A stretch of DNA of 64,000 nt from contig CAXGWX010000001.1 of the NCBI GenBank assembly GCA_964013445.1, positions 5,055 through 69,054 of the forward strand. Direction: 5' to 3'. Of this stretch, positions 6,515 to 63,842 are shown piece after piece (position 1 is the stretch's first letter; each line of letters begins with the position of its first letter). Source of the stretch: an uncultured Bdellovibrionales bacterium (GTDB lineage: Bacteria; Myxococcota; XYA12-FULL-58-9; JASMKV01). The notes beneath the pieces were generated by a model. That model was not told the DNA's origin. It was given only the letters and a program-made list of their open reading frames with translations, and did no database searches. A program made the translations under genes and the position numbers.

Positions 6515-6999
6515 TCTTCCCTCAAATCCCCCCTATGTTATGCCGATTTTACGGAAAGCACGATATTTTAGCAGAAAAGTATCGTGCAGAAATCGGGTCC
6601 AGGTTCTAAGTGCACAAAATCAGATCGGATTTTTTGTGCATATGCGCAGCAAAAACATATGAGCACACACCGCCAAAGACTTAAGTCACTGTTTTTACAG
6701 GAATATTTTTTCCTGCCGGATCATGGCACAGCCCCTGCAATGACCTTTGACAACATCGTTAAACTGACCCAAAGCGGGGCGTGAAATATATTTGAGCTAT
6801 TTTATTGGAGAACTTTCCTGGGGGCAAAAGGCTTAAGTAAATTTTACGCTTCGCCGTAGGGCAACATATTCGTAAGTGTTAGGTGTATAATCTTGAAACC
6901 TGGTAAATCACCTGGGGGCAAAACGGCGAACCTGGGCTTCAGGGTTATACACCGCTCTTGTTTTTTATCTATTCACAGTAAATTTATACTGGCGCAAAT

Positions 7000-7881: not shown

Positions 7882-7897
7882 TTATATTCAATATATT

Positions 7898-8671: not shown

Positions 8672-8695
8672 AACTTGAAGCCCCCGAGGCTTCCA

Positions 8696-9310: not shown

Positions 9311-9325
9311 GTTTCACGTGAAACA
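9310..9325. promoter_or_regulatory. parS centromere-like site (perfect 16-bp palindrome)
   Basis: TGTTTCACGTGAAACA exactly matches the widespread ParB-binding parS consensus. It sits in the mnmG-rsmG intergenic region abutting the rsmG start codon, 1.4 kb from parAB. Confidence 0.85.
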
Positions 9326-9337
9326 CCAACACTTCAA

Positions 9338-11206
9338 TCAGGCAGCGCTGGCAAATCCCTTGGTGCATTGAACCCGCAAAAGCGCCAGACCTGCCGGTGT
9401 CATTCCCGGAATGCGGCTGGCCTGCCCCAAAGTCGCGGGCTTGATCCGGTTAAGCTTTTCAGAAAGCTCGTTGGAAAGGCCCTGTACCTTTTGGTAGTCA
9501 AATTCGTCCGGTAACTTTATCCGATCCAGCTCGACCAATCGGGCGATTTCCTTTTCCTCGCGGCGAATATAACCCTCATACTTCACACTTTCTTCGACAA
9601 TACGTGCCTGCTCCGGTGCCGCACTGGCCTCTTCGGGCAACAAATCTTCGATCCGGATATCCGGTCGCCGCAGGATTTCAATCTTCTTTGTCCCCAGGTA
9701 TTTCTCCGCCACCGACAATCCAGAGGCTAAATCCGCTCGTGAAATACCCGTTTTTTGCAGCTCTTTGAGGATCTCTTCACGAGATCGGCGACGCTCCTCA
9801 ACCCGCTGAAAGCGGCCGGAATCAATTAATCCAAGGGCATAGGCCATATCTGAAAGCCTGTCTTCCGCATTAGACTCCCGTAGAGTTAAGCGGTGCTCGG
9901 CGCGGGATGTAAATACGCGGTAGGGTTCATCCACCCCTTTGGTCACCAAATCATCGATGAGCACACCAATATAGGCCTGATCTCGCCTTAATATAAAAGG
10001 TTCATCCCCTGCCACAAAACGCAGCGCATTCACACCGGCCACTAAGCCCTGAGCTGCCGCTTCTTCATAACCGCTCGTGCCATTGATCTGTCCCGCCAAA
10101 AATAGACCGGAAACGCTTTTTGTCATCAGATTTGCCCGCAATTGGGTGGGTGGGGCGTAATCGTATTCCACCGCATATCCGTGCTGGAGAATCCGCACAT
10201 TTTCTAAGCCCGGGATGGTCTTCAAGAAAGCTTCCTGAACATCCCGCGGCAGAGACGTGGAGAGGCCGTTGGGGTAAACCCGCTGCGAATCCAGGCCTTC
10301 CGGCTCAAGGAAGATTTGATGCCGATCCTTATCTGAAAAGCGGACAATTTTATCCTCCAGCGATGGACAATAACGTGGCCCAATGCCCGTAATCATCCCT
10401 TGAAAAAGAGGCGAACGAGCCAGATTGTCCTGAATGATACGGTGGGTTTCCTCATTCGTATAGGTAATAGCGCAGCTCACCTGCGGCAGGTCGTTTGGAC
10501 CCGATTCAAAAGAAAACTGTGGTCTCGGTTCGTCACCTTCTTGATGCTCCAGGTGCTCCCAATCAATGGTTTCCCGATCGAGCCGTGGAGTTGTGCCGGT
10601 CTTAAATCGGCCTAATTCGATTCCATTGGCCTTTAAGGCCTCGGAAAGATAATTTGCCGGCGCATCACCGACCCGCCCTCCCGCAAACTTCTCCTGGCCA
10701 ATATGGCAGAGGCCATTGAGAAAAGTTCCGGTGGTAATAATGCAAGCCCTGCAGGAAATCGCTCCAAGGGTGGTCTCAACCCCTTTAAGCTCGCCCTTCT
10801 CGACGAGCAATCCGCGCACTTCCGCTTCGATAGGAGTAATTCCATCGCAGCCCAATATCCGCTCAGTCATTGCTTCCCGATATAGTTTCGAATCTGACTG
10901 GCATCGGGTTGAGCGGACAGCTGCTCCTCGGCTAAGGTTTAAGCGGCGAAACTGAATGCCTGTCGCATCCGCAACCTGGGCCATAGCACCACCGAGCGCA
11001 TCAATTTCACGTACCAAATGGCCTTTGGCCACTCCCCCAACCGCCGGATTACAGCTCATTTGCGCAATACGATCCATCCGCAAACTCACCAGACCAACCC
11101 GGGATCCCATACGTGCAGCGGCCAGTGCTGCCTCACAGCCCGCATGTCCCGCTCCAACGACGATGATATCAAAATGTTTCACGTGAAACCTTACTTTCCA
11201 ATGCAA
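9338..11206 (-). CDS. mnmG: tRNA uridine 5-carboxymethylaminomethyl modification enzyme MnmG (GidA)
   Basis: FAD-binding [17 protein letters not shown]-terminus and 622 aa length. The start may be the internal GTG (VKHFDIIVV), since the listed N-terminus is encoded by the parS-like palindrome. Confidence 0.9.
11175..11190. promoter_or_regulatory. parS-like site (15/16 match)
   Basis: TGTTTCACGTGAAACC at the mnmE stop / mnmG start overlap. It encodes the FHVKHF N-terminal residues of the listed mnmG ORF. Confidence 0.7.
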
Positions 11207-12546
11207 AAATGAGAGAAGATTTGGTCTAAAATCTCAACCTTCACATCTCTTCCCAGAATTTGCCCCATATATTCGATCGATTCCTGTAGATCCATGGCTA
11301 AAACATCTAAACTTTGGCCAGCATCATAGGCCTCTAAAAGTTGACCAAGGGATGCATCCGCCATCTTCAGTAGCTCCAAATGCCTCTCCCTAACAACAAT
11401 CCCATCACACTCCTCTTCACCTAAGGCATTATAGGAGTTCAACTCTTCAGCCAGATTATCGAGGCCCATTCCGGTCTGTGCGGAAAAAGCTCCAATAAAT
11501 TGTAGCTCCATGGACTTTATGGTCTCCACCAAAGCCATCAACTCATCTTCTGCCAAGAGATCGGACTTCGATACCGCCAATCGAACCGGCAAACTTTCTG
11601 GCGGAAAAACCGGTTTATCCGCTGCCACAAGCCAGAGCGCTAAATCCGCTCGGTTTATCCGCTCAAAACTCAGCTCGATACCTTGCTGCTCTAATTCACT
11701 CGAACCTTCACGGATACCCGCCGTATCCCAGAGAGCCCAACGCTGAGAATCCTGGGCAAACTCCACTCGCACCGGATCTCGAGTGGTGCCTGGATCCTTA
11801 TCAACCAGCACCCGTCGTTCACCGGCAAGCGCATTAAGCAAAGTCGATTTACCAACATTCGGTGCGCCGCAAAGAACGATCTCTCGACCCCGCAGAACAT
11901 CAATTCGAGCCTTCGTTATTTTTTCTTGTATCCTACATCTAATATCGTCTAAGGTCTGCCGGTGACTCGCCACCAACCCGTCACCGCTGGGGTATTCAGG
12001 AAAATCCAGAACCGCTTGCCAGTCCCGTAAAACCCCTTCCATCCCATCAATTAAGTCACTAAGATCACTAGAGAAACTACCACTCAGCTGAGCCCCTGCC
12101 AAACGCAACTCGGAGTCAGATCGGGCCGCTATCAGGTCTGCCACTGCTTCTGCCTGAGCCAGATCCAACTTGCCATTCACATAGGCGCGCAGCGTATATT
12201 CGCCAGGCTGAGCCAGGCGAGCACCCTTCGCCCTCAGCGCAGAACTCAAACGCTCAACAATGATCGGTGCACCATGCAAATGAAATTCAACAATATCCTC
12301 CCCTGTATAGGATCGAGGCGCATGCATCTCCACCACCATGCCCTCATCCAAAAAGCCCTGATTCTCATCCACTATCTTAGTTAATTCGAGACGATGGGAT
12401 TGGCGAGGCTTCACCGATGGCGCGATTTTCTGGGCAATTTCAAGGGCCTCGGGTCCGGCAAGACGCACAATGGCCAGAGCGCCTGCTCCCGGAGCAGTGG
12501 CGCAGGCAAAAATCGTATCCTTAAATGTCGCTACTCCGTATTGCAT
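11191..12546 (-). CDS. mnmE: tRNA modification GTPase MnmE (TrmE)
   Basis: G-domain [20 protein letters not shown] motif and the C-terminal CIGK tetrapeptide characteristic of MnmE. Confidence 0.9.
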
Positions 12547-35769: not shown

Positions 35770-36669
35770 TTAAAGTGTTGTTCGCTTTTGAAATCGTTTT
35801 TTAACCATTTTCCTGATATTTAAACGTTCTGCAGCTAATTTTAAGATGTGGGGTTGCTGTGACACAACGCGCAGAACTCGTGCTGCCTCCCAGGGAACAG
35901 CTGTCCAGCAATACTTAAGAAAGCTCATGGCTGATTCATTTTTTAACCATAAATAATAACGATTAATAAACGACTGTGCATAAATTCCTGGCGGCTTGCT
36001 TTCTGGACCTCTGCGCTTATGAAAAGCCTTAACTTCTGGTGTATACAGATGTTTCCATCCTTTGTTGGTCAATCGCCAAGCAAGATCCACATCTTCATAA
36101 TAGGCAAAAAAATCTTCATCAAAAAATTCTGGTCCGACATCTTCAAGAGCCTTTCTTCGGTAAAGAGCTGCCGTTGCCGAGGGTCCAAAAATAAAACCCT
36201 CTGTATTGTATTGACCTAAATCTTCTTCCTCAAAGCCCTTATCCAGTGGTCTCAGTGCATAAGCACAAAGATCAATACCCACAGAATCTATGAATTGCCT
36301 GCCGTTCTTTTCGTAAACAAGTTTTCCCGTAGCTGAAGCTAACTCTGAACATGTTTCCATTTTCTTTAGGATGACCGAAAGATAATCATTAGAAATTTTA
36401 GCATCATCATTTAAACAAAGAATATACGGTGATTCAGATTGCTTAAAACCCATGTTCATAGCTACAGAGAAACCATAGTTTTTATTCAACTTAATTAACT
36501 CCACAGAGCTGAAATCACGTTCAATAATATTACAGGTTTGATCCTGAGAGTGGTTATCTATAACTATAATTTTTTCAGGATTATTTGCCGAAGCAGCACT
36601 TAAACAACGCTCAATCCAGGACTCACTGTTCCAGGTTACGACGATAACTGTGACGGGGAGAGCACTCAC
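35770..36669 (-). CDS. Glycosyltransferase family 2
   Basis: VTVIVVTWNSESWIERCL...VIDNHSQD...LNDDA GT-A motifs. Confidence 0.7.
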   Translation of the reverse strand: MSALPVTVIVVTWNSESWIERCLSAASANNPEKIIVIDNHSQDQTCNIIERDFSSVELIKLNKNYGFSVAMNMGFKQSESPYILCLNDDAKISNDYLSVILKKMETCSELASATGKLVYEKNGRQFIDSVGIDLCAYALRPLDKGFEEEDLGQYNTEGFIFGPSATAALYRRKALEDVGPEFFDEDFFAYYEDVDLAWRLTNKGWKHLYTPEVKAFHKRRGPESKPPGIYAQSFINRYYLWLKNESAMSFLKYCWTAVPWEAARVLRVVSQQPHILKLAAERLNIRKMVKKRFQKRTTL

Positions 36670-37691
36670 TTTGCACCTGTACGTTGAGCATACATTCTTT
36701 GATAGTAATCTTTGTACGCCCCATTCTTAATATTTGCCCACCACTCCTTGTTATCCCTGTACCAATCGACCACTTCAACAAGTCGTTCTTCAATAGAAGG
36801 TCCTGCTCTAAATCCAAGCTTATCTTTCGCTTTAAAGGGTTCAATAGCGTAACGTCTGTCGTGAGCTAAGCGGTCTTCCACCGGCTGTATAAGCTCTTTT
36901 CCTACACCTGTGACCTCACAAATGGCCAACGCTATATCCTTATTGGCCCGTTCGCATTCACCGCCCAAGTTATAAACTTCTCCGTTCACGCCTTTTTCAA
37001 AAGCAAGTTTTAAACCAAAGGAATGCTCATCAACATAAATCCAGTCTCTAACATTTTTGCCATCACCATAGAGTGGGAGCGGTTTATTCTCTAATGCATT
37101 AGTAATGAAGAGAGGAATAAACTTTTCAGGAAACTGATAAGGCCCGTAATTATTAGAGCAGCGGGTAACAATAGTATTCAGACCATAAGTTTTATGAGCT
37201 GCCAAAACCAATAAGTCAGAAGATGTTTTAGAGGCCGCATAAGGCGAGGTTGGCTCAAGAGCAGATTCCTCACTAAAACGCTTCTGGTCTTCAAGTTCCA
37301 GCGAGCCATAAACCTCATCAGTTGAAACGTGCATAAAGCGCCCAACCTTATGCTTTCGAGCTGCATCAATAAGATTCTGTGTTCCTACCACATTCGTTTC
37401 AACAAAAGGGAGTGCGCTTTCAATAGAGCGATCTACATGGGATTCAGCAGCAAAATGAAAGATGGCATCTGCACCATCTCTTAAGGCTTTATCGACATCA
37501 TCAGCGCGAATGATATTACCATGGATAAAAGTAAAACCTGGGTGTTCAAAGACGGGCTTTAGGTTCTCCATGTTTCCAGCGTAGGTGAGCGCATCGAGAA
37601 CAATAATTTCATCACACCACTCTTCAAGCAGAGCCCGCCTGACAAAATTAGAACCTATAAACCCCGCTCCACCTGTAACAACCCAACGCAT
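36666..37691 (-). CDS. rfbB: dTDP-glucose 4,6-dehydratase RmlB
   Basis: MRWVVTGGAGFIGSNFVRR N-terminus, catalytic YAASK, and 341 aa length. Confidence 0.85.
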   Translation of the reverse strand: MRWVVTGGAGFIGSNFVRRALLEEWCDEIIVLDALTYAGNMENLKPVFEHPGFTFIHGNIIRADDVDKALRDGADAIFHFAAESHVDRSIESALPFVETNVVGTQNLIDAARKHKVGRFMHVSTDEVYGSLELEDQKRFSEESALEPTSPYAASKTSSDLLVLAAHKTYGLNTIVTRCSNNYGPYQFPEKFIPLFITNALENKPLPLYGDGKNVRDWIYVDEHSFGLKLAFEKGVNGEVYNLGGECERANKDIALAICEVTGVGKELIQPVEDRLAHDRRYAIEPFKAKDKLGFRAGPSIEERLVEVVDWYRDNKEWWANIKNGAYKDYYQRMYAQRTGAK

Positions 37692-37723
37692 GATACAATT
37701 ATTCTATCTCAAAAATATAAATA

Positions 37724-38830
37724 TTATTCGTTTGAAGTAAGTGAGGCGGTTTCATCTTCCAGATTGCCCGCACCCCACATTTTATCACGGCTTGTGCGTG
37801 CTTCTTCTTTATTGGCGCGTTTCTCAGCTTGCAGCTCAACAAGGTGATGGTGTGTCGTAAAATAAGGAAGACTCTTACCGACAATATCCTGAACCGAATC
37901 AAATCCATGATCGTCCATAAACTTAGATAAGCCTTCCATAAGTGGAGTTACCATTTTCATGCCATAAATCATCGCACCGGTACAAACCTGAACCGTATTT
38001 GCACCAACCAGAAGAAACTCAATAGCATCTTCGGCTGTCACAACCCCGCCAATCCCAGAAATATCAAATTTTGGTATTTCTACGGCAATTTCCTTAACCG
38101 CACGCAGCCCAATAGGCTTTACCGCCGGTGCGGAATAACCACCTGGGGTGGAGTGTCCCTCAACCGTTGGAAGCGGCCTAAGGGTCTTAAGATCGATTCC
38201 AATCACCGCCAACACCGTATTGATGGCACTGACTCCATGGGCACCGCCAGCCTGAGCCCCTTTTGCAGGCTTTACGATATCCGTAATGTTGGGTGTCATC
38301 TTTGACCAAACCGGCACATCGACGGCTTCAACAACCCAGCGCGTGACTTCTTCAACCTGGGCAGGATCTTGCCCCATAGCGGCCCCCATGCCCGTTTCAG
38401 GGTGTCCATGTGGGCAGGAGAAGTTAAGTTCCAAAGCATCACATCCGGCGGCCACACAGCGTTGTGCAACCTCTTGCCAGCGTTCTTTTTCATAAGACTC
38501 CATGATCGAGCCAATCAGAATCTTGTCCGGATACTCATTTTTTACGATTTTAAATTCTTCTTCCCATTGCTCAAAAGGAAGATCGGAAATCAGCTCTATA
38601 TTTTGAAATCCATAGACTTCACCGCCTTTAGCACGGAGTTTTCCGTAACGAGGCATAACATTAACAACTTCCGTGTCCGTTAAGCTTGTTGTCTTAGCAA
38701 CAACACCACCCCAGCCGGCCTTAAAGGCCTTACAAATAACGCGAGCATTTGTTCCAGGAGGTCCACTGCCAATAACAAATGGATTATCAAATTTAAGGCC
38801 TGAAACTTCGATGCTTAGATCTCTTGCCAT
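37724..38830 (-). CDS. Dihydroorotate/dihydropyrimidine dehydrogenase-family flavoprotein (PreA-like), no Fe-S partner domain
   Basis: FDNPFVIGSGPP and NFSCPHG catalytic-cysteine motif typical of the DHOD/DPD TIM-barrel family. The C-terminal about 45 aa are low complexity. Confidence 0.65.
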   Translation of the reverse strand: MARDLSIEVSGLKFDNPFVIGSGPPGTNARVICKAFKAGWGGVVAKTTSLTDTEVVNVMPRYGKLRAKGGEVYGFQNIELISDLPFEQWEEEFKIVKNEYPDKILIGSIMESYEKERWQEVAQRCVAAGCDALELNFSCPHGHPETGMGAAMGQDPAQVEEVTRWVVEAVDVPVWSKMTPNITDIVKPAKGAQAGGAHGVSAINTVLAVIGIDLKTLRPLPTVEGHSTPGGYSAPAVKPIGLRAVKEIAVEIPKFDISGIGGVVTAEDAIEFLLVGANTVQVCTGAMIYGMKMVTPLMEGLSKFMDDHGFDSVQDIVGKSLPYFTTHHHLVELQAEKRANKEEARTSRDKMWGAGNLEDETASLTSNE

Positions 38831-38898: not shown

Positions 38899-40005
38899 TT
38901 AGCCTATTTTAAGGGCACCCTGCTCTATTCTAAAATGGTGATTTTCCTCAGGCACCTGCAATTCCACGCTTCCTGTTGTGGAAATCCAAACCTGACAACC
39001 AAGCTCTTCTATGCACTTAAACAGATACTCTGTCCGTTGCTTGTCCAATTCACTGGAAACATCGTCCAGAAGAAGCAAGGGAGCACAACCAAGTTTTTCC
39101 TCAATCACTTTAACTTCAGCCAGTTTCAGCGCCAAAACAAGAGATCTTTGCTGACCTTGCGAGGCAAATGATTTAGCTGCACGCCCATCCAGGGAAAAGG
39201 ACAAATCACTTCTTTGCGGTCCAATGGTTGTTAATCCGCGGGCTCGATCTAAATTAAAACTCTCGCCTAAAGCTTTCCTGTATGAATTTTGAAAAGATTT
39301 TGCATCATGGATAGGAACACCCGGATCTAATAAAATTTCCAAATCAGTCTCAATAATACCAAGTTCTCGCAGAAAATATTCCACATGAGGTTTTAAGTAC
39401 TCTAATGAATCTTTTCGATACTGATGTATTCTTGCACCATATTTAATCAGCTGTTCATCAAAAGCCCTAAGTAAATTTTTATCGAGTCTGGTATCCTGTT
39501 TCTGATGCTTACGAAGAATACTATTTCTTTCTTTTAAGGAACGACGAAAAGAACGAAAACTATCAACCGAGTCAGGAAAAAAACTCAATGTACACCTATC
39601 TAAAAATCTTCTTCTTCCTTCAGGGCTCCCTTTAACCAACATGAGGTCATCTGGAAAGAAAGCCACAATATTCATCAGGCTTAAAAGCTTAGTTAGGCTT
39701 CGAAGCGGCTTATCATCCACACGGATGGTTCGCTTTGCATTGCTTAATTTGATCTCTATTTGATGACGAACATTTTGTTTAATAATCTGACAACGTACAA
39801 CACCAGCCTGCTCATTATCCCTTATGAGATCCGCAATAAGACCCTTTCTAAAAGATTGCCCTGTCGATGCCAGATAGAGAGCCTCTAAAAGATTTGTTTT
39901 TCCTTGAGCATTATTGCCGGAAATAAGAATCCAGGATTTATCAACATCGACCTGTAGAGATTCTATATTGCGGAAATTTTTTAAATAGAGTTGCTCAATA
40001 AACAT
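38899..40005 (-). CDS. recF: DNA replication and repair protein RecF
   Basis: Walker A GNNAQGKTNLLEA. Conserved dnaA-dnaN-recF order. Start placed at the ATG giving MFIEQLYLKNFRN; the listed ORF begins at a TTG at 40026 that overlaps the dnaN stop. Confidence 0.85.
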   Translation of the reverse strand: MFIEQLYLKNFRNIESLQVDVDKSWILISGNNAQGKTNLLEALYLASTGQSFRKGLIADLIRDNEQAGVVRCQIIKQNVRHQIEIKLSNAKRTIRVDDKPLRSLTKLLSLMNIVAFFPDDLMLVKGSPEGRRRFLDRCTLSFFPDSVDSFRSFRRSLKERNSILRKHQKQDTRLDKNLLRAFDEQLIKYGARIHQYRKDSLEYLKPHVEYFLRELGIIETDLEILLDPGVPIHDAKSFQNSYRKALGESFNLDRARGLTTIGPQRSDLSFSLDGRAAKSFASQGQQRSLVLALKLAEVKVIEEKLGCAPLLLLDDVSSELDKQRTEYLFKCIEELGCQVWISTTGSVELQVPEENHHFRIEQGALKIG

Positions 40006-40022
40006 AAGGCTTAAAAAGCCAA

Positions 40023-41135
40023 TCAAATACGCATTGGCATGATAACGGTAAGAAAACCTGTTTCCTCAAGAGGCTGGATAATTCCTGGTGATAGGTCATC
40101 AGTTAGCTCTAAACAAATACTATCTTCAGAAACCAAGCCTAGAACCTCCATAATATAACGGGCATTAAAACCAATTGTTAATGGATTTCCTTGATAAGCA
40201 ACATCAATGGTTTCGTTTGCATTACCTAGTTCTGGATCTTCAGCCACCAACTCCAAAGAGTCCTCATTGAAAACAAAGCGCACACCATAAGATTTGCCCT
40301 GAGATAAAAGTGATACTCGTCGTAGGGCTTGGCTTAATTTCGATTTTGAAATCTTAATTTCTTCACCGGCTTCCTGGGGAATAACTTGCTGATAGTCTGG
40401 AAATTGTCCTTCGATAAGACGTGTCGTTAAAATGACATTATCAGCTCTTAAGAAACCACTGTTATTTGTAAAACCTAGTTCTACGGTCTCGACAGCATCG
40501 TCGTCCTGTAAAACTCGTCGTAATTCCTGGAAACCTTTTTTAGGAACAATCACACCGCTCTCAAAAGGTAATTCATTGGTAAAATTCTTTTCGCTAAAAG
40601 CCAAACGATGACCATCGGTTGCCACAAGTCGTAAAGTTTTTTTATCACGAACTTCACAATAAACTCCGGAAAGATTGTGTCGATTATCATCAGCGGAAAC
40701 ACAAAAGATTGTTCGTTCAATCATTTGTGCCAAGTCTTCTGATGGAATCTGAAAAGTATCTGTTTCTGTATGCGAAGGTAAATTCGGGAATTCATCTCCA
40801 GACATTCCAACCAGTTTGAAATTGGATTTCCCTGAACTTATTTTAATCCATTGATTTTCAGCGACTTCAAAATTGACTTCGTCTTCAGGAAGAGCTTTTA
40901 AAATATCATATAAATGTCGGGCATGTACGGCAATTGAGCCTGGTTTAGAAACGTTTGCCTCATAGGTTCCGGTGAGTCCAACTTCAAGATCAGTTGCGCT
41001 TAAACGTAACTCTCCTTGATTGCTTGCTTCAATAAGTACATGAGCCAGGATTGGCATTGTGCTCTTTTTGTCAGCTATTCCTTGCACGCGAAATAGAGCT
41101 TTTGTGAGTTCAGAAGATTGGATGGTAAATTTCAT
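40023..41135 (-). CDS. dnaN: DNA polymerase III beta sliding clamp DnaN
   Basis: 370 aa, MKFTIQSSEL...ALFRVQGI N-terminus, three-domain clamp length. Between dnaA and recF. Confidence 0.9.
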   Translation of the reverse strand: MKFTIQSSELTKALFRVQGIADKKSTMPILAHVLIEASNQGELRLSATDLEVGLTGTYEANVSKPGSIAVHARHLYDILKALPEDEVNFEVAENQWIKISSGKSNFKLVGMSGDEFPNLPSHTETDTFQIPSEDLAQMIERTIFCVSADDNRHNLSGVYCEVRDKKTLRLVATDGHRLAFSEKNFTNELPFESGVIVPKKGFQELRRVLQDDDAVETVELGFTNNSGFLRADNVILTTRLIEGQFPDYQQVIPQEAGEEIKISKSKLSQALRRVSLLSQGKSYGVRFVFNEDSLELVAEDPELGNANETIDVAYQGNPLTIGFNARYIMEVLGLVSEDSICLELTDDLSPGIIQPLEETGFLTVIMPMRI

Positions 41136-41230
41136 TGCGTATCCTTAGCTAATGAAAAAGTAGCTAGGGGTTTGCGCTGCTTTTGTCAACCCTTAGATAA
41201 GCCGGTTGAAATTGGCTCAAGGCTCTCTAT

Positions 41231-41270
41231 TTATTTAATATATATATATAAAATAATAATAATAATAATG
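41231..41270. promoter_or_regulatory. AT-rich tract (candidate DNA unwinding element) in the dnaN-dnaA intergenic region
   Basis: ttatttaatatatatatataaaataataataataataatg is nearly pure A/T, and is immediately followed by DnaA-box-like ATATCCACA sites at 41274-41282 and 41334-41342 (reverse orientation) and TTATCCAAA at 41414-41422. Confidence 0.5.
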
Positions 41271-41537
41271 GGCTGTGGATATGTGAATAAGTGAAAATAG
41301 CTCTGAAAAAGTTGGCCTTTTAAGAAGAAATCTTGTGGATATCCTCTGCACGAAAATGTTTTTAAAGCTGTGGGTAAGTCGAGTTTCGAGTGGCTCACAT
41401 TTTTTTCACAAGTTTATCCAAAGACCTGCTCACACTTTATACACAGAAAATAGGCGTAAAAACGGCGATCTTTTCCTAAAAAAAGTGGAATTTATTTTTA
41501 GTTTTGCCTCTTGTAAGGGGTCTAAGGGCTGCGGAAA

Positions 41538-42941
41538 TTAACCGGGTTCAGAGATATCAAGCTTGCGTTCGAGAGCAAAAACCTCTGAACGTAAGGAGGG
41601 GTCTTCCTTGAGCAGGGAAGTCACTTTTTTACAGGCACTGAGAATAGTTGTATGATCCTTGTTTCCAAATCGAGCACCGAGCTCAGGATAGGAGGCACCA
41701 GCGTGTTTTCGGCAAAGATACATGGCTACCTGACGGGGCCGAACGATAACTTTCTGTCGGCTGGCACTTTTTAAGTCGCCCATTTTAACTTGATAGTATC
41801 CTGCAACTGTTTTTTGGATGGATTCAATGGATATCTGCGCAGGTCGTGTGCTTAAGATGTCCTGGAGAACATTTTTAGCATAATTTACATCAATGCTGGA
41901 GCCCGTGAGGGATGCGTGGGCAGCAATACGTACCAAAGCGCCCTCAAGCTCCCGAACATTGGAGCGAATATTTGAGGCGAGAAAGTGGAGCACTTCGTCC
42001 GGTAAATCGATTTTATCGCTTTCCGCTTTCTTTTGTAGGATTGCAATACGTGTTTCCAGTTCTGGAGGTTGAATATCCGCAATCAGACCCCATTGAAAAC
42101 GAGACCGGAGGCGCTCTTCAATATCAGGGATTTCGTGAGGCAGCTTGTCACTGGTCACGACAATCTGGCGTTGGGAGTCGTATAAGGTATTAAAAACATG
42201 AAAGAATTCATGCTGTGTGCGGACTTTTCCTGCGATCAGCTGAATGTCGTCGATAAGAATGACATCGCAGTGCCGTCGGTATTTTGCGTGAAACTCTTCA
42301 AGCTTAGAAAAACGCACCGCTGCAATAACCTCATTTACAAATTGTTCTGCGGATGTGTAGATAACGCGGGCATTAGGTCGATCCTGTAAAATTTGTTGCC
42401 CAATCGCTGAGATAAGGTGGGTTTTCCCAAGACCAACACCCCCAAAGAGAAAGAGAGGGTTGTAAGAGTGGGCCGGATTTTCCGCCACCGCCTTGGAGCC
42501 AGCAAAAGCCAACTGATTTGAAGGACCAGCAATGAATGTATCGAAGGTATATCGGGGGTTAAATTGCTTTGTATAGAGGGCATTTTGTTCGGGATTAAAC
42601 GAGATTTCCGAGGGTTTTGGGGATTCCTGTAGAAGATCTGTAGATTCCTCCGCCGCCGCAATCTCGGTTGAAGATTTGATCGTGGGATCCAAGGCCCAAT
42701 CAACGGCCAGCTGCTCTTGAGCCAGCTCGCTGAGGTGATCACGGATGAAATCGAGGTAATGATCACAGAGCCAATCGCGAAAAAACTGATCCCGTACCGC
42801 CAGAATGATGGTTCCATTGACCACTTCCCGGGCTTGAATAGGCAAAAGCCAGGTCTGCCAAACATGGGTGGAAACTTTGTTGCGGGCCAGGGACAAGAAT
42901 TCCGTCCAGAGCGCTTGTGGGTCGATTGTTTGCTTTAACAT
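41538..42941 (-). CDS. dnaA: Chromosomal replication initiator DnaA
   Basis: AAA+ Walker A GGVGLGKTHL, Walker B ILIDDIQ, and the C-terminal DNA-binding helix region. 467 aa. Confidence 0.9.
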   Translation of the reverse strand: MLKQTIDPQALWTEFLSLARNKVSTHVWQTWLLPIQAREVVNGTIILAVRDQFFRDWLCDHYLDFIRDHLSELAQEQLAVDWALDPTIKSSTEIAAAEESTDLLQESPKPSEISFNPEQNALYTKQFNPRYTFDTFIAGPSNQLAFAGSKAVAENPAHSYNPLFLFGGVGLGKTHLISAIGQQILQDRPNARVIYTSAEQFVNEVIAAVRFSKLEEFHAKYRRHCDVILIDDIQLIAGKVRTQHEFFHVFNTLYDSQRQIVVTSDKLPHEIPDIEERLRSRFQWGLIADIQPPELETRIAILQKKAESDKIDLPDEVLHFLASNIRSNVRELEGALVRIAAHASLTGSSIDVNYAKNVLQDILSTRPAQISIESIQKTVAGYYQVKMGDLKSASRQKVIVRPRQVAMYLCRKHAGASYPELGARFGNKDHTTILSACKKVTSLLKEDPSLRSEVFALERKLDISEPG

Positions 42942-43000
42942 GGACTATTCACAATACCTTAAAAAATATTTTATCAAATCAAAACAGATACTTATATCTG

Positions 43001-43032
43001 TTATCCACTATTTATCCACAGACCTATCCACA
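43001..43032. promoter_or_regulatory. Cluster of three tandem DnaA boxes upstream of dnaA (candidate oriC / dnaA autoregulation site)
   Basis: TTATCCACT (43001-43009), TTATCCACA (43012-43020) and CTATCCACA (43024-43032), same orientation, 2-3 bp apart. All match the TTATCCACA consensus with at most 1 mismatch. Confidence 0.75.
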
Positions 43033-43352
43033 GCTTTTTCAAGCTAAGGAAGAGGGTTATAAGTATTTTGTTGTCGGTGAATTGAGTGTGTGCTTTCCGC
43101 ACCATACTCGCCCTTCCCCCAATCAAAGACTCCGCCGATTTGAAGCACAAACAAGCGGCTTTGATAACATCGTTTCTACCCTTCTAAGTAGTATTATCTC
43201 TATTAGCGATGAGCTCGTTCTCAAGTCAATAGCGAAAATTGCACTTTATCCCATTTAAAAAGATCTCCAGCGCATTTTTGCTCGGAAGGATCTTTTTGCT
43301 CCTTGATTGGCAGCCATCTCTTTCCTAAAGGTTAAAAACCCGACTTGAGCCA

Positions 43353-43380
43353 TTGACAAAGTGGCTCCCACAGGTAAAAA
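43353..43380 (+). promoter_or_regulatory. Putative sigma70-type promoter for rpmH-rnpA-yidD-yidC
   Basis: TTGACA at 43353-43358 and TAAAAA at 43375-43380 with 16-bp spacing, about 55 nt upstream of the rpmH ATG. Confidence 0.3.
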
Positions 43381-43434
43381 GGCCGCCAACAAGCGAATAA
43401 TAAAATAGATTTTTAGAAAGGAAGTTGCAGAGCC

Positions 43435-43584
43435 ATGAAACGGACATTTCAACCGCACAATCGTCGCCGTCGGCGCAAGCATGGATTTCGTAAACGCGCC
43501 TCCACTGCATCTGGCCAAAAGATTTTAAAAGCTCGTCGCCAAAAAGGACGACATCGTTTAGCCGTTGTAACCGCATCGAAGTAA
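43435..43584 (+). CDS. rpmH: 50S ribosomal protein L34
   Basis: 49-aa [52 protein letters not shown] with an AAAGGAAG RBS. Below the 60-aa cut-off of the ORF track. Directly upstream of rnpA. Confidence 0.85.
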
Positions 43585-43587
43585 AGG

Positions 43588-43953
43588 ATGCTTGAGGAGA
43601 GCTTGCAGGAACAACCGTCAGAGGACGGTGTGCTTGGGCTGAAGACTCGTAAGGATTTTTTACGTGTACAGGGGAAAGGGAAGCGATTTAAAAGTCGGCA
43701 TTTGATACTCTTGAGCCATCCACAAACTTTAGATCAAGCCCGTGTAGGGATTACACTTAGCCGTCGTGTTGGTAACGCGGTAACCCGAAATAAAGTTCGT
43801 CGTAGGCTGCGAGAAATCATTCGCCTCAATAAGCATCTTTTTTCTCGTATTTACGATCATGTCATCATTGCCAGCCCAAAGAGTGCGCGGGCAGACTACG
43901 AAACGCTTGAAACAGAATTATGTCATCTCTTAGCAAAGCTACAAAGGATTTAG
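43588..43953 (+). CDS. rnpA: Ribonuclease P protein component
   Basis: RKDFLRVQGKGKRFKSRHLILL and RNKVRRRLRE motifs. 121 aa. rpmH-rnpA linkage. Confidence 0.8.
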   Translation: MLEESLQEQPSEDGVLGLKTRKDFLRVQGKGKRFKSRHLILLSHPQTLDQARVGITLSRRVGNAVTRNKVRRRLREIIRLNKHLFSRIYDHVIIASPKSARADYETLETELCHLLAKLQRI

Positions 43954-51494: not shown

Positions 51495-52637
51495 TTAGTT
51501 GGCGTGATTTCTGGCAGCTTTTCCGTTTTGTTTTTTGGCTTGCGCCTCATTGACCGGCGCAGCATTCTCTGGTGCCTTTTTTGCCTTAATGGTCATAGAG
51601 TTGCCCTGTGCATTTTCCGCTGACTCTTTAGGGAGAACACCAAAATGCAAGCGAATGCGCTCTTCTAATTCTTCAGCAATGCCAGGATTGGCTTGCAGGT
51701 ATTCTTTTGCTTGTGCCCTGCCCTGACCCAGCTTGTCACCTTTGTAGGCATACCAGGAGCCGGCCTTGTCGATAATTCCCAGATCGGTTGAAAGATCGAC
51801 CAAGTCGCCAAATTTACAGATGCCTTCCCCATAAAGGATATCAAATTCATGGTCACGGAATGGAGGTGCCAACTTGTTTTTGACGATCTTAACTCTTGTG
51901 CGGTTACCAGAAATTTTGTCCCCTTGTTTGATTTGACCGATACGACGAATCTCCATGCGTTGAGAGGCATAGAATTTCAACGCATTTCCACCTGTCGTGG
52001 TTTCTGGGTTACCGAACATAACACCAATTTTCATACGAATTTGGTTGATGAAAACAACTGAGGTGCGGCTCTTGGAAATAATACCGGTGAGCTTTCTTAA
52101 AGCCTGACTCATAAGACGGGCTTGCAGTCCCATATGCGAGTCACCCATATCCCCTTCGATTTCAGCTCGCGGTACGAGTGCGGCAACCGAATCGATAACG
52201 AGAATGTCTACCGCATTTGAGCGAACAAGCATTTCCGCAATTTCCAAAGCCTGCTCACCATTATCAGGCTGTGAAATGAGTAGGTCATCAGTTTTGACTC
52301 CAAGTTTGCGTGCGTAGTTGATATCGAGGGCGTGTTCCGCATCGATGAATGCGGCCACTCCACCTTGCTTTTGTGCTTCAGCGAGTGCATGGAGGGTTAG
52401 AGTCGTTTTACCGCTTGATTCTGGTCCATAGATTTCGATGATTCGACCGCGGGCCAGGCCACCAATTCCGAGAGCCACATCAATCCCGATAGAGCCGGTT
52501 GAAATGGTGGGAATGTCATGAACAATCTGCTCATTCTCGCCCAAGCGCATGATTGAACCCTTGCCGAATTGTTTCTCAATCGAGCCCATTGCCAGTTCAA
52601 TTGCTTTTTCCCGATCAAATGTGTTTTGCTTTGCCAT
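51495..52637 (-). CDS. recA: Recombinase RecA
   Basis: [17 protein letters not shown]...[11 protein letters not shown]-terminus and Walker [11 protein letters not shown]. Start placed at the conserved MAKQ (AAAGGCAG RBS upstream). The listed ORF extends 45 codons further to 52772. Confidence 0.9.
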
Positions 52638-52879
52638 TGTTTTTAAGCTGCCTTTCTTTGTGAGGAGAAGTTCTCCTCGATGTTCAGTGTGATACTGAAC
52701 AAATGTTTCAGTGTCAATGCTAATTCTTATGCCATGGAGGTCTGACAGTTTTTTTGTTCCTGAAAAATGCATTAAAAACAGTGGTCTAGAGAGATGTTCG
52801 TGAGAGATTAAAGTCTGGGCAAAACCTTGAGTTGTGCTTCTGGATGGTTTAATTCCTGCCTATCTAAGGAGAGAGAATA

Positions 52880-53539
52880 ATGAAAAATTGCCAATATTAT
52901 CTCAGTTTGGTCTTTGCGGGCGCCCTATTCTTAGTTGCCGGCTGTCAGGTCGGTGCGAATGCGGCAGGGCCGAAGAGCGAAGGTTCTGGGCCAAACCCCG
53001 TATTGATTCTGGATACGAACCAGGGCCAGATTGCCATTGAGCTAGATAAGGCAAAAGCACCGATTTCCACCGAAAATATTTTAACCTATGCAAAAAATGG
53101 CTTTTATGAGGGAGTTATTTTTCACCGCATTATTCCCAATTTTATGGTTCAAGCAGGCGGTTTTGATGCAGCCTTGAAAAAGCATGGGCCGCTGCGGCCA
53201 ACAATTAAAAATGAGGCGGCCAATGGTCTAAGTAATGTCCGCGGCACCGTGGCAATGGCTCGCACCCAGGTCGTCGATTCCGCGTCCTCACAGTTTTTTA
53301 TTAATCTTGTGGATAACTCGCGTCTCGATCATCGCTCGAAAGATTCACGTGGTTATGGCTATGCGGTTTTTGGAAAAGTTATCGAAGGCATGGATGTTGT
53401 GGATAAGATTGCCCAGCAAAAAACTCTATGCCCCAGCTCAAAACGGGGTCCTTGTAACGCGAAGCTACCGATGGGGATGCGCGATGTTCCTGCTGAACCA
53501 ATTGTGATCAAAAAAGCCTATCAGCGAAAGGTGAAGTAG
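52880..53539 (+). CDS. ppiA: Cyclophilin-type peptidyl-prolyl cis-trans isomerase, lipoprotein
   Basis: Lipobox LVAGC after a signal peptide. Cyclophilin core VIFHRIIPNFMVQAGG. Confidence 0.85.
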   Translation: MKNCQYYLSLVFAGALFLVAGCQVGANAAGPKSEGSGPNPVLILDTNQGQIAIELDKAKAPISTENILTYAKNGFYEGVIFHRIIPNFMVQAGGFDAALKKHGPLRPTIKNEAANGLSNVRGTVAMARTQVVDSASSQFFINLVDNSRLDHRSKDSRGYGYAVFGKVIEGMDVVDKIAQQKTLCPSSKRGPCNAKLPMGMRDVPAEPIVIKKAYQRKVK

Positions 53540-61434: not shown

Positions 61435-62073
61435 CTATTGGGGCGCATATTCAGGGGTAAGAACTCCCCCTGAAATGATCAATTTAAAAGCCTCATCGAC
61501 GGACATTTCAAGGGGTATGGCGTCTGCCTTTGGCACCAGAAGCAGCCAGCCACTGGTTGGATTGGGCGTGGTCGGGACGAATACGGAAATCATTTCCTGG
61601 TCGAGTTTTGTGGCTATTTCTCCTTTCGTATCGGCAGTGAGCAAAGCCAGCGTCCACAGCCCTTTGCGTGGATACTCAACCATAACAACCTGTCGAAAGG
61701 CGGAACCTCCGGAACTGGAAAAAGTATCAAGAAATTGGCGAACCGCAGAATAGACACTACGCACCACCGGAACCTGCATAAGGATGCGTTCAAACCAGGC
61801 GAGGAGCTGCTTACCAATGACAGTACCACCAACCAATCCGATGAGGTAGATAATGATAAGGGTGAAGAGCAGGCTTAAGCCCATGCTTAAGTATTTTACC
61901 GTGGCGGTATCGATGAGCGCACCCAGGCCAAAAGAGGAAATCACTTTATGGATGATTGGGGTTAATGCGGATGTGGTTTGAATGACAATAAATTTAACCA
62001 CCCAAAGCGTGATGGCAATAGGGAGAATTATCACCAGCCCGGTGATAAAGGTTCTTTTGGTGCGTTTTTTCAT
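61435..62073 (-). CDS. DUF502-family membrane protein
   Basis: 212 aa with an N-terminal hydrophobic pair and a conserved soluble domain pattern (VPTTPNPTSGWLL). Confidence 0.5.
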   Translation of the reverse strand: MKKRTKRTFITGLVIILPIAITLWVVKFIVIQTTSALTPIIHKVISSFGLGALIDTATVKYLSMGLSLLFTLIIIYLIGLVGGTVIGKQLLAWFERILMQVPVVRSVYSAVRQFLDTFSSSGGSAFRQVVMVEYPRKGLWTLALLTADTKGEIATKLDQEMISVFVPTTPNPTSGWLLLVPKADAIPLEMSVDEAFKLIISGGVLTPEYAPQ

Positions 62074-63842
62074 ACGGGTTCCGTTGGTCGTTTAGGAATC
62101 GCTTTTAGGGCGGCTTTGTTGTTTTTGCTATAGACTTTAAAGAACACATCTTCGCAATTATGTTTTTGCATAACGGATTTCTTCGTTTTGGTGATGCGCT
62201 CTTCAAACTTTTCATAGGTTAGATTCGCGATTGATTCACCGCATGCCCGGCGCATTGCAATAAATTCATGATAAAGTTTATTGAAGTTTTTATCCGTTGA
62301 GGTTTTACCGGTAGAGCCGCTGGACTCCGGATCAAAAGCGGGCATTTGATGGGTGCCCAGCGCTTTTCCTTGGTGTTCTAAGGGCAGGGCATTGTCTTTT
62401 TCTGTTTCAGCATTTTCGTCAACCTCTAACTCATTTTCAAAAACATCCGTGAGCCTTGAGCCTTCCTCTTTTGTGTTCTCTGGCTTAAAGGCGGGGAGCC
62501 CGTCGGCGAGGGTTTTACTGATTCTCGGGGTTTCAAGGCCGCTAAATTCCTGTTCCGAGAGTTCTGCGGGGGCCTGATTCGGATTGGTTTTAATGATTTC
62601 ATCGAGCTTCTTAATGGCTGTTACGCTTCCGGGCTTAGGCATTCTCTCTACGAGTTTATTGGCCAAGCGCCCCAGTCTGTTGAGTTCAGGATCGAGCTCG
62701 TGCACCGCCAAGTGTTTATCGTCCGGCATGCCCTGATGCACTCTGCCGAGAAAGTCTGATATATGTTCGATTCCCCAAAGTAATTTGGTTCCCGTATTGA
62801 GGATTAGACTGGATGCAACCAGCCAGAGCATAAGACCGAGTAGAATGATGGCCCATTGGTAGGCGATAATTTTCTTTACGATGTCACCACTATCGTCGTA
62901 GATGAATGCGCGCATATGTGGGTGCCCAGGTAGAGCGGCTTCGATAACAGATAAACCGAGTTTTTGTGTGTCGATGAATATGGGTGCAAGTTTTATCGAA
63001 GAAATGACCGGTAGCCCGGGGCGTTCGATATTAGAGGGGAGGTGGAGGGCTAAGTCTTTTGGCTTAAGTGCTTCCAGGGAGATCTTTTCCGGTAGCTCTC
63101 CAATAATGTTATCTCCCACCAACAGAAAAGAGTTTATATTGGTGATGGCTGGGGCATTTTTGAGTTGTTCATGCATAATGATGGCCGCAATGACTTTATT
63201 TCTTAACATGAGCTTTGTGGCACTGTGCCGATAGACATTTCCCAGCCAAGTCTGTGTGCGAATCTGAGGAGCTCCGTTCAGCGCTTTACCGACAAAGGCC
63301 CAGGGCTTTTTGTTTTCATCGCTTTCGCCTTCATTAAGTTTCGATAAGTTGATGGTGCCACTGCCGGCGGGTAAACTTTCGGTTTCGCTATAAAGGATCA
63401 CACCTGCGGGGGTTACGATGGTGAACTTTTCGATATTTGGGTGATTCTGTTTTACCCGGGTTAATCTTTCGCTCAGCAATCCACGCTGCTTCGTTAAACG
63501 TTTTTCAAGTCGTAACTTCTTGCGTGCACCGGCTTCGTCATAGCGCTTTTGGGAAATGATAACCCGCCCGATGTCCTGGATAAGATTTTGGTTGCCCGCG
63601 ATTGCCATTGTTTGTTGGATGAATTGACGTTCCTCTTCAAGGAGGTTGACGCGCAGACTTTCAGTTTGAGCTTTGAGGAGAGCCTGCTTGAGTTGTGGAT
63701 AATCCGCGCTGAGGGCGGATGTGCGTTGCAAAATTAAAACGATAACAGCCGCAAAAAATAAGGTGCATAGGAGCCATGCAATTTTGCGCTGTTTTCTCAT
63801 GATAGAAGTATCCCGCCAGTTTTTACGCCAAACTATGGGCAA
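62070..63842 (-). CDS. Hypothetical bitopic/multi-TM membrane protein with extracytoplasmic domain
   Basis: 590 aa. N-terminal TM (about residues 21-38) and a second TM at about 330-350. Conserved-looking C-terminal segment YHEFIAMRRACGE...FEERITKTKK. 4-nt overlap with the downstream DUF502 gene. Confidence 0.4.
   Translation of the reverse strand: MPIVWRKNWRDTSIMRKQRKIAWLLCTLFFAAVIVLILQRTSALSADYPQLKQALLKAQTESLRVNLLEEERQFIQQTMAIAGNQNLIQDIGRVIISQKRYDEAGARKKLRLEKRLTKQRGLLSERLTRVKQNHPNIEKFTIVTPAGVILYSETESLPAGSGTINLSKLNEGESDENKKPWAFVGKALNGAPQIRTQTWLGNVYRHSATKLMLRNKVIAAIIMHEQLKNAPAITNINSFLLVGDNIIGELPEKISLEALKPKDLALHLPSNIERPGLPVISSIKLAPIFIDTQKLGLSVIEAALPGHPHMRAFIYDDSGDIVKKIIAYQWAIILLGLMLWLVASSLILNTGTKLLWGIEHISDFLGRVHQGMPDDKHLAVHELDPELNRLGRLANKLVERMPKPGSVTAIKKLDEIIKTNPNQAPAELSEQEFSGLETPRISKTLADGLPAFKPENTKEEGSRLTDVFENELEVDENAETEKDNALPLEHQGKALGTHQMPAFDPESSGSTGKTSTDKNFNKLYHEFIAMRRACGESIANLTYEKFEERITKTKKSVMQKHNCEDVFFKVYSKNNKAALKAIPKRPTEPV

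Follow-up and report, generated by a model that had tools for sequence, protein, structure and literature searches.

Within the 64-kb stretch of DNA analysed here, referred to as the window, dnaA is flanked by two intergenic spacers in a gene order that reads recF-dnaN-dnaA and then rpmH-rnpA-yidC-jag (Table 1). Pfam confirmed the identities of recF, rnpA, yidC and jag in addition to those of the three genes listed. The gene strands of the window diverge at dnaA/rpmH, exactly within the rpmH-dnaA spacer, and mnmE-mnmG-rsmG-parA-parB is found together with a perfect parS about 30 kb from the dnaN-dnaA spacer. A scan of metagenomes for close relatives returned one contig nearly identical to the window, plus a few partial contigs. 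The independent metagenome contig L081 is 99.4% identical to the window and has the same spacers, and the long A/T tract discussed below is therefore not an assembly artefact. In the dnaN-dnaA spacer, L081 and the window differ by nine SNPs, all of them outside the boxes, gap, trios and A/T tract. Between the window and L001, one of the related loci used for comparison, identity in the rpmH-dnaA spacer is 84%. DnaA shares only about 36-38% identity with Pseudobdellovibrionaceae loci, and the organism is thus no close relative of these.

Table 1. Genes and sequence elements at the dnaN-dnaA-rpmH locus, in window coordinates (a dot in the strand column: no strand assigned).
Feature	Position	Strand	Basis or remark
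dnaN	40023..41135	-	Pfam DNA_pol3_beta, three domains
dnaN-dnaA intergenic spacer, proposed oriC with unwinding half	41136..41537	.	six DnaA boxes, at most 1 mismatch
dnaN promoter-like TTGACA-N17-TAGCTA	41161..41189	-	-35 conserved, -10 weak; presumed function
Rest of pure A/T tract, (TA)n and TAAATAAATA, AT-rich DUE part	41228..41248	.	low stability
DnaA-trio-like array	41249..41269	+	read 3'->5' TAA x6, then AAT; central-A periodicity
4-nt GC-rich gap GCCC (CGGG on trio strand)	41270..41273	-	direct reading, relatives compared
Downstream box of tandem pair, (A)TATCCACA	41274..41282	-	ATATCCACA, 1 mismatch to TTATCCACA
Upstream box of tandem pair, TTATTCACA	41282..41290	-	1 mismatch to TTATCCACA
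DnaA box ATATCCACA (reverse complement of TGTGGATAT)	41334..41342	-	direct reading and box scan
DnaA box TTACCCACA	41369..41377	-	kept in L001, L003; nearly in L004 (A1)
Distal DnaA box TTATCCAAA	41414..41422	+	direct reading and box scan
Distal DnaA box TTATACACA	41437..41445	+	at most 1 mismatch; L001 keeps corresponding TGTGTATAA
dnaA	41538..42941	-	Pfam DnaA_N, Bac_DnaA, Bac_DnaA_C
Degenerate DnaA box CTATTCACA	42945..42953	+	2 mismatches; 3 nt before dnaA start codon
Three co-oriented DnaA boxes, proposed dnaA operator, possibly auxiliary origin half	43001..43032	+	kept in L001-L006, L139
Conserved G-rich motif GGGGGAAGGG in predicted dnaA leader	43111..43120	-	comparison of lineages
Promoter-like TTGACT-N18-TAATAG towards dnaA	43200..43229	-	259 bp before ATG
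Inverted repeat AAAAAGATC-N23-GATCTTTTT between divergent promoters	43257..43297	.	arms 43257-43265, 43289-43297
rpmH promoter-like TTGACA-N16-TAAAAA	43353..43380	+	TTGACAA, TAAnAn blocks kept in six lineages (A4)
rpmH	43435..43584	+	Pfam

The dnaN-dnaA spacer (402 bp) contains six DnaA boxes, compared with a mean of 0.14 in shuffled sequences, and none of 5000 shuffles reaches six. Three of the boxes had been described in an earlier note on this DNA, two in reverse orientation at 41274-41282 and 41334-41342, where TGTGGATAT or its reverse complement ATATCCACA is read, and one at 41414-41422 (TTATCCAAA). All are present, but the count was too low: the boxes at 41282-41290, 41369-41377 and 41437-41445 had been overlooked, as had the box at 42945-42953 and the 3-nt periodicity of the A/T tract. 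The tandem boxes at 41274-41290 are co-oriented and abut each other with one base in common. The box clusters of the dnaN-dnaA and dnaA-rpmH spacers are the densest in the window, and the box-rich consensus of the former is kept in relatives (alignment A1).

Across a short GC-rich gap, the tandem pair is followed by a run of pure A/T. This tract had been placed at 41231-41270 (40 bp) in the earlier note; it is real, but its limits are 41228 and 41269, and with 42 bp it is the longest in the window (the runner-up has 18 bp). Whether stability is scanned in steps of 30, 50 or 100 bp, the least stable segment of the 64 kb falls at 41219-41326, and the minimum duplex stability, at the dnaN-dnaA spacer, is -24.1 kcal/mol against a mean of -41.0 (sd 3.5) over the 64 kb. 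The arrangement matches the layout of the basal unwinding system (BUS), which in incC of B. subtilis consists of DnaA-box #6/#7, a GC cluster, DnaA-trios and an AT-rich 27-mer (Richardson, 2016, 2019; Pelliciari, 2021; PMC6669920, PMC8287927). The search definition (Pelliciari, 2021) asks for a first DnaA box with at most two mismatches to TTATCCACA and a second, co-oriented box within 3 bp of it that may have up to four mismatches. It further asks for a spacer of at most 16 bp (published peak 10-13), with a short GC-rich gap, between the better box and the first trio, and for at least three consecutive NAN trios on the strand complementary to 5'-TTATCCACA-3'. In the window, the boxes are TTATTCACA and ATATCCACA, co-oriented and each with one mismatch; 12 bp lie between the upstream box and the first trio, with GCCC as the gap; and there are seven trios, or six if the array at 41249-41269 is read in the +1 register (AAT x5, then AAA).

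A search of both strands of the 64 kb finds the combination of tandem boxes, 4-nt gap and seven trios a single time. We dropped this single hit as decisive evidence, because shuffled windows carry 0.32 sites of the strict pattern per window and 15 of 60 have at least one, so that only position and conservation count. Within the dnaN-dnaA spacer, about 0.002 sites are expected by chance. With respect to the consensus 3'-GAT-5', the trios are TAA or AAT in the window (the register is ambiguous) and TAG/TAC in relatives; GAT-starting trios were found only in L006, L092 and L007. AAT-type arrays are also on record for C. jejuni and H. influenzae.

L001-L005 share the box pair, the gap and the central-A periodicity without a shift in register, each with a run of at least five trios, and four of the loci that do so have 57-66% GC. 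Among related lineages, the register is kept in six, L001-L005 included, and shifted in L006 and L092; the module is degenerate in L007, with two trios only. The distance from the first trio to the dnaN start codon is 134-151 bp in the window and in L001, L002 and L004, and in L002 a 2-kb insertion separates the module from dnaA. The copy number of (ATT)6 is the same in the window and L001 despite the divergence of their spacers. The central-A periodicity persists in GC-rich relatives, for which an explanation as a microsatellite fails.

The earlier note had suggested the skew switch as a check on the origin. In the 64-kb window, the cumulative G-C minimum is at 40886, near the dnaN-dnaA spacer and about 250-400 bp from the box/trio site; it is a local minimum that mainly reflects the strand bias of the genes. 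At 4-fold degenerate sites pooled from seven lineages, the GC skew of the sense strand is +0.07 versus -0.19 in the co-oriented gene groups on either side of dnaA, a signal dominated by a codon preference for C and on which the two sides disagree; it assigns the switch to neither side of dnaA. Within the window, the proposed origin coincides with the skew switch and with the divergence of gene orientation, and the six boxes adjoin the window's least stable DNA.

Because the local skew minimum, gene order, box density, BUS geometry, lowest stability, conservation and the nearby parABS converge, we place the origin and its unwinding element in the dnaN-dnaA spacer. From the sequence and its comparative analysis, it appears highly likely that this spacer is the chromosomal origin with a standard DnaA-dependent unwinding module, the second cluster most likely being a dnaA operator. 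That an origin lies here had been proposed in the earlier note and is well supported by the same lines of evidence; the locus is very probably the replication origin of the chromosome, of the ordinary bacterial type in which boxes lead into an easily melted A/T tract. The sequence and published work in other species suggest how it would operate. DnaA would first occupy the distal boxes (41334-41445) and the tandem pair (41274-41290). A DnaA-ATP oligomer would then grow from the pair across the GCCC gap onto the + strand array at 41249-41269. The array would be stretched and melted and the adjoining A/T opened to 41228, with helicase loading there, after which forks would leave to the left via dnaN and recF and to the right via dnaA.

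The dnaA-rpmH spacer (493 bp) contains three boxes, all within 32 bp (shuffle mean 0.15; one of 5000 shuffles reaches three). They are TTATCCACT (43001-43009), TTATCCACA (43012-43020) and CTATCCACA (43024-43032), all on the + strand as previously read, with start-to-start distances of 11 and 12 bp, and they include the sole perfect TTATCCACA of the locus. The position of the degenerate box CTATTCACA is occupied by a perfect TTATCCACA in L002-L006 and L139. Pattern scan and direct reading revealed no trios adjoining the boxes at 43001-43032 and no box-plus-trio arrangement on either strand of the spacer. Next to the cluster, at 42954-43003, is the 50-bp window that ranks second in the 64 kb for low stability; this A/T stretch is located 5' of the boxes, on the wrong side for a BUS, and is not A/T-rich in GC-rich relatives. 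In six lineages, some of them GC-rich, a promoter-like TTGAC-N17/18-TAATAG precedes dnaA by 252-282 bp; L005 is among the six, and there rpmH or dnaN has moved and the box cluster remains with dnaA. The boxes lie downstream of this predicted promoter, between it and the ATG in six lineages, inside a predicted dnaA leader of about 250 nt, and one overlaps the ribosome-binding region. An Rfam scan of 40800-43800 at E<=1 gave no hits, and the consensus structure of the leader from six lineages had no predicted pairs, which argues against a structured leader RNA. A small ORF in the spacer (e.g. 43001-43150, minus strand) was rejected on account of 1- and 2-nt indels in the window/L001 alignment.

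Since the cluster is devoid of trios, sits in the predicted leader and stays with dnaA, autoregulation fits it better than unwinding. To judge from the sequence, the cluster, together with the box at 42945-42953, is most likely an operator for dnaA self-repression, and it may in addition concentrate DnaA near the origin. The earlier note had preferred an origin in two parts on either side of dnaA, like those of Bacillus and Helicobacter, and had offered, as its alternative, an origin in the downstream spacer and dnaA autoregulation by the upstream cluster. The alternative is favoured by our analysis: the upstream cluster has neither trios nor a DUE in productive orientation, it is located between a promoter-like element and the start codon and moves with dnaA (L005), and the unwinding module is separable (L002).

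As to the remaining elements, a generic sigma-70 and terminator scan of 40900-43700 returned counts at chance level, and it is therefore conservation on which the promoter assignments are based. On the dnaN side, a TTGACAA block is kept across AT-rich and GC-rich relatives (A1), and in the spacer where the earlier note presumed the rpmH promoter, TTGACA is read at 43353-43358, ahead of that gene. The same spacer has the 9-bp GATC inverted repeat as described (43257-43265/43289-43297; arms AAAAAGATC and GATCTTTTT). We rejected it as a regulatory or Dam/SeqA-type sequestration element: about 7% of shuffled spacers have such a repeat, which makes it non-significant; GATC sites are few, with one and two in the two spacers versus 3.5 per kb window-wide; and it is conserved in the closest relatives only, with arms kept and loop diverged in L001 and L082 and no repeat seen in L002-L006.

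Bipartite origins are defined by two halves that are each essential in vivo and interact through DnaA. In a truly bipartite origin, 43001-43032 and the downstream spacer would both be needed in vivo, DnaA would loop out dnaA as it does in B. subtilis and H. pylori, and only the downstream half would unwind. We hold this to be possible, if rather unlikely. High-affinity-type, helically phased and co-oriented boxes flank dnaA on both sides in at least seven lineages, the BUS pattern is found in the dnaN-dnaA spacer only, DNA of low stability adjoins the upstream cluster as well, and the origins of B. subtilis and H. pylori need their two halves in vivo, with unwinding in vitro confined to one of them (PMC6669920). 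However, autoregulation alone explains boxes placed in a leader and at a ribosome-binding region, and the A/T stretch has neither the orientation nor the conservation of a BUS. Moreover, the distance between the clusters varies, with 2 kb inserted in L002 and a rearrangement in L005, and the origin of B. bacteriovorus was unwound on a plasmid with the dnaA-dnaN region only.

A more far-reaching proposal, which we consider improbable, is that the clade formed by the window and L001-L005 uses a deviant DnaA-trio, 3'-TA[G/C/A]-5', with T first, only the central A fixed and a register set 4 nt after the proximal box, and that its leader box array is both an autorepressor roadblock and a required second origin half. 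If true, the deviant trio and the dual-role array would add a Myxococcota/Bdellovibrionota-like lineage to those with bipartite origins and widen the diversity of trios.

It is very unlikely that the rpmH-dnaA spacer itself is the origin, as in the Pseudomonas type, and that the boxes and A/T tract upstream of dnaN merely regulate dnaN transcription. Gene orientation does diverge exactly there, and three tightly phased boxes, with the only perfect TTATCCACA, adjoin an A/T-rich 50-mer; yet the spacer is without a box-plus-trio arrangement, its A/T stretch, on the 5' side of the boxes, is not kept in GC-rich relatives, it is the dnaN-dnaA spacer that has both the conserved BUS and the lowest stability, and the G-C minimum is left of dnaA. 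The least credible reading, in which the boxes are dnaA/dnaN operators, the tract belongs to a promoter or is a microsatellite, and replication starts somewhere beyond the 64 kb, can point to a skew minimum visible only locally, to box-like 9-mers over-represented across the window generally and to a -35/-10-like pair from the generic promoter scan that overlaps the tandem boxes and the tract, but is opposed by the coincidence of skew minimum, gene order, parABS, BUS geometry and lowest stability at one site, by the periodicity kept in GC-rich relatives and by the constant (ATT)6 copy number in L001.

With the origin assigned to the dnaN-dnaA spacer, a probable replication start is fixed for an uncultured marine-type lineage that is labelled Myxococcota, Bdellovibrionales or Deltaproteobacteria in MAG records. 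Its position is useful for orienting and circularising MAGs and for growth-rate estimates from read depth. The locus leaves the general understanding of origins unchanged and adds a clean, comparatively supported example to the view that the box-plus-trio module is ancestral and widespread.

Among known systems, oriC1/oriC2 of H. pylori (Donczew, 2012; PMC3479198) is similar in that box clusters flank dnaA and that DUE and trios are found in the downstream part only. The boxes are divergent in H. pylori, and interaction between the parts and the essentiality of both were shown by experiment there. In B. bacteriovorus, oriC was mapped to the dnaA-dnaN spacer by P1 nuclease and replication-initiation-point analysis (Makowski, 2016; PMC5124646). 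It shares with the window the context rnpA-rpmH-dnaA-[oriC]-dnaN-recF, multiple consensus-type DnaA boxes, a DUE at the dnaN-proximal end and a short GC-rich stretch between the trios and the nearest box. Its spacer is 232 bp compared with 402 bp in the window, two of its boxes are inside the dnaA 3' end, and its published BUS prediction consists of a single proximal box and (GAT)5.

The BUS predicted for Geobacter sulfurreducens (Table S1, PMC8287927), which is a prediction only, has an identical downstream box and gap, 3'-ATAGGTGT CGGG, an abutting upstream box, AATAGGGGT, also found in L002, and a 12-bp spacer; in contrast to the window, its trios start GAT GAC AAA GAT. From B. subtilis the window differs in its trios, which are not GAT, and in an A/T-rich part built as a perfect, microsatellite-like (TAA)6(TA)n tract. 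The two have in common a site flanked by dnaA and dnaN, in which distal boxes lead to a proximal pair that abut and point the same way. In both, the gap is GC-rich and 4 nt long, 12 bp separate the first trio from the upstream box (as in S. aureus too), and the strand complementary to 5'-TTATCCACA-3' has 3-nt repeats with a central A that run into an A/T-rich stretch.

The spacer between dnaN and dnaA very probably holds the chromosomal origin; judged from its sequence, this would belong to the common dnaA-dnaN type, and a basal unwinding system (BUS) can be recognised in it. Origins of this kind are already known, and the locus adds another instance from an uncultured lineage. The earlier note had placed an origin here, and the skew minimum, the density of DnaA boxes and the conservation of the unwinding module bear this out; as to the boxes upstream of dnaA, which it had taken for the second half of a bipartite origin, its own alternative of dnaA autoregulation fits better. 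The motifs it listed were all found in their places by reading the sequence, except that the limits of the pure A/T tract need correction: the uninterrupted run spans 41228-41269 (42 bp) and is by far the longest in the window (runner-up 18 bp).

Genes and sequence elements in the window, with the parts of the dnaN-dnaA spacer numbered in dnaA sense
Feature	Coordinates	Strand	Remark
parS, perfect	9310-9325		TGTTTCACGTGAAACA
parS copy	11175-11190		one mismatch
recF	38899-40026	-	
dnaN	40023-41135	-	
Spacer, 1st: boxes	41437, 41414		one orientation
Spacer, 2nd: boxes	41369, 41334		opposite orientation
Spacer, 3rd: abutting TTATTCACA and (A)TATCCACA	41290 down to 41274		
Spacer, 4th: GCCC gap			
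Spacer, 5th: (ATT)6 TTA			
Spacer, 6th: (TA)n TAAATAAATA			
Spacer, 7th: TTGACA	41184-41189		conserved; ~40 bp past (TA)n TAAATAAATA
dnaA	41538-42941	-	
Fourth upstream box	42945-42953		CTATTCACA, degenerate; ends 3 nt ahead of dnaA start
G-rich motif	43111-43120	-	GGGGGAAGGG, within predicted dnaA leader
GATC inverted repeat	43257-43297		AAAAAGATC/GATCTTTTT
Predicted rpmH promoter	43353-43358		coordinates of TTGACA, which is followed by N16 and TAAAAA
rpmH	43435-43584	+	followed by rnpA, yidC and jag, also +
Perfect box	53308-53316	-	
Perfect box	53398-53406	-	
Perfect box	63694-63702		

The dnaN-dnaA spacer (402 bp) contains six TTATCCACA sites at ≤1 mismatch, three of them (41282, 41369 and 41437) additional to those of the earlier note, and the dnaA-rpmH side has three within 32 bp (43001-43032). 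These two clusters are the highest box densities anywhere in the 64 kb, and among 5000 composition-matched shuffles of each spacer, none had as many boxes as the real dnaN-dnaA spacer and one as many as the real dnaA-rpmH spacer. At scales of 30, 50 and 100 bp, the lowest duplex stability in the window falls on the box-plus-trio stretch (least stable 30 bp, -24.1 kcal/mol; window mean -41.0, sd 3.5). The trios lie on the plus strand, the first of them 134 bp from dnaN.

As defined by Pelliciari et al. (2021), a BUS consists of a DnaA box with ≤2 mismatches, an optional second box (≤4 mismatches) at ≤3 bp, a spacer of ≤16 bp with a peak at 10-13, and at least three NAN trios with central adenine. 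A stricter pattern of tandem boxes, a gap of 2-6 nt and at least four trios had a single match when both strands of the 64 kb were searched, namely the dnaN-dnaA site. By itself this pattern is not rare: block-shuffled windows had a mean of 0.32 sites, with at least one in 15 of 60. Its weight therefore rests on its position, since ~0.002 chance sites are expected within the spacer. Of 18 matches in dnaA loci of many phyla (673 kb in all), most were immediately next to dnaA.

Relatives were found by DnaA-based searches and are labelled as Myxococcota, Bdellovibrionales or Deltaproteobacteria MAGs; DnaA identity to the window is 86% for locus L001, 58-67% for L002-L006 and 46% for L007. In the spacer alignment, the best-conserved block is the proximal box (...CACAG) with the short gap and a run of 3-nt periodicity. 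In a register 4 nt past the box, the window and L001 have 7 or 8 central-A trios in a row, and L002-L005 have 5 to 8. In these last four the run reads TAG TAC TAG ..., and at 57-66% GC its periodicity is not explicable by A/T richness. L006 and a further relative, L092, have the register 2 nt past the box (GAT AAG AAT ...), and in L007 the trios are reduced to GAT GAT. A 2-kb insertion in L002 parts dnaA from the module, which remains beside dnaN, and in L005 dnaN is relocated with the module still downstream of dnaA; it thus behaves as an autonomous element. The L002 insert (5366-7197) has a long ORF, 5511-7001 (-) or 5559-6953 (+). In L005, the spacer that separates the dnaA promoter from the relocated dnaN, which is divergently oriented, is filled with ~90-bp tandem repeats (CCTAACAA...GGCTGACATG..., ~930-1200). 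The near-identical contig L081 differs from the window at nine spacer positions, none in boxes, gap, trios or A/T tract (~2.2 expected by chance; P ~0.08 for none), which is only suggestive.

The cumulative G-C curve, a check proposed in the earlier note, here covers the 64 kb and is dominated by coding-strand bias; it forms a V whose lowest point, at 40886, is ~250 bp away from the dnaN-dnaA spacer. The minus strand carries most of the large ORFs between ~20 kb and dnaA, the plus strand most of those between rpmH and ~55 kb. Four-fold degenerate sites, tried for the replicative component of the skew, did not separate which side of dnaA holds the switch. An independent sign of a nearby origin is the minus-strand mnmE-mnmG-rsmG-parA-parB cluster (within 7000-12546), ~30 kb to the left, with both parS sequences inside it; parS sites cluster near oriC.

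Box-like sequences also occur elsewhere in the window. In the whole 64 kb, four perfect boxes were seen against ~0.5 expected by rough base-composition arithmetic, and outside 41136-43434 there are 30 box-like 9-mers (≤1 mismatch) against 16 in 1-kb block shuffles. Their strand preference reverses at the origin, with TGTGGATAA-like copies on the leading/sense strand 23 vs 7, probably owing to codon context. Two of the perfect boxes, 90 bp apart, are within the ORF of a cyclophilin-type PPIase (52880-53539), which neighbours recA (51495-52772), and a third is in an ORF without Pfam match (62070-63842). Unlike in many dnaA-dnaN-recF-gyrB clusters, recF is not followed by gyrB; its neighbours (36666-38830) are a dihydroorotate-dehydrogenase-like gene and an NAD-dependent epimerase/dehydratase gene, an arrangement shared with L001.

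The boxes at 43001-43032 are best read as a putative autoregulatory dnaA operator. They are co-oriented and about one helical turn apart, and the position of the fourth box is a perfect TTATCCACA in L002-L006 and L139, another relative. In six lineages, GC-rich ones included, a promoter-like element directed towards dnaA (TTGAC-N17/18-T[AT]A..G) precedes the ATG by 252-282 bp; if it is the dnaA promoter, all four boxes would lie inside a ~250-nt leader. L005 keeps the entire promoter-and-box unit though rpmH is no longer adjacent. Direct reading and the strict-pattern search revealed no trio array in the productive direction from these boxes. It is the leader position, the missing trios, an A/T-rich stretch on the wrong side and the retention in L005 that fit an operator. 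The cluster possibly has an auxiliary role in origin function as well. Each of the two origin halves is essential in vivo in B. subtilis and H. pylori, with in vitro unwinding in one only (PMC6669920); a bipartite origin of that type, with both halves needed, is conceivable here and rather unlikely. That the rpmH-dnaA spacer is itself the unwinding site is highly improbable: the A/T-rich 50-mer 42954-43003, second least stable in the window, adjoins the boxes on the wrong side, and its counterpart is not A/T-rich in GC-rich relatives.

No conserved RNA structure was predicted for the putative dnaA leader, nor did it match Rfam; a conserved small ORF was ruled out by indels between the window and L001. 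The G-rich motif within it is conserved across relatives as GGGGGnnGGG followed by GTGA (L001 3823, L006 1546, L007 3886), with no RNA-structure signal. The rpmH promoter presumed in the earlier note is upheld as a predicted element conserved in six lineages. The GATC inverted repeat, which has the rpmH promoter-like element on one side and the divergent dnaA one on the other, is present as described and falls short of statistical significance: ~7% of shuffled spacers have one. Its arms are kept in L001 and the related L082 with a diverged 23-nt loop, it is not recognisable in L002-L006, and neither spacer is enriched in GATC; it could be a regulator binding site.

In conclusion, the locus is mildly unusual in only two points, the clade-conserved T-first trios and the placement of the putative operator boxes in a long leader. 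For B. bacteriovorus, mapping has put both DnaA-dependent unwinding and the replication initiation point inside a 232-bp dnaA-dnaN spacer, which has eight boxes and, behind a short GC-rich stretch, four GAT trios (PMC5124646). Written 3´ to 5´ as in Table S1 of Pelliciari et al. (2021), the window reads AATAAGTGT (upstream box), ATAGGTGT (downstream box), CGGG gap and trios TAA x6, AAT; B. subtilis reads AATAGGTGT, TTAGGTGT, CCGG and GAT GAT AAT ..., and Geobacter sulfurreducens AATAGGGGT, ATAGGTGT, CGGG and GAT GAC .... B. subtilis and S. aureus have the same 12-bp spacer as the window, and with G. sulfurreducens the window shares the downstream box and the gap, whereas upstream boxes and trios differ.
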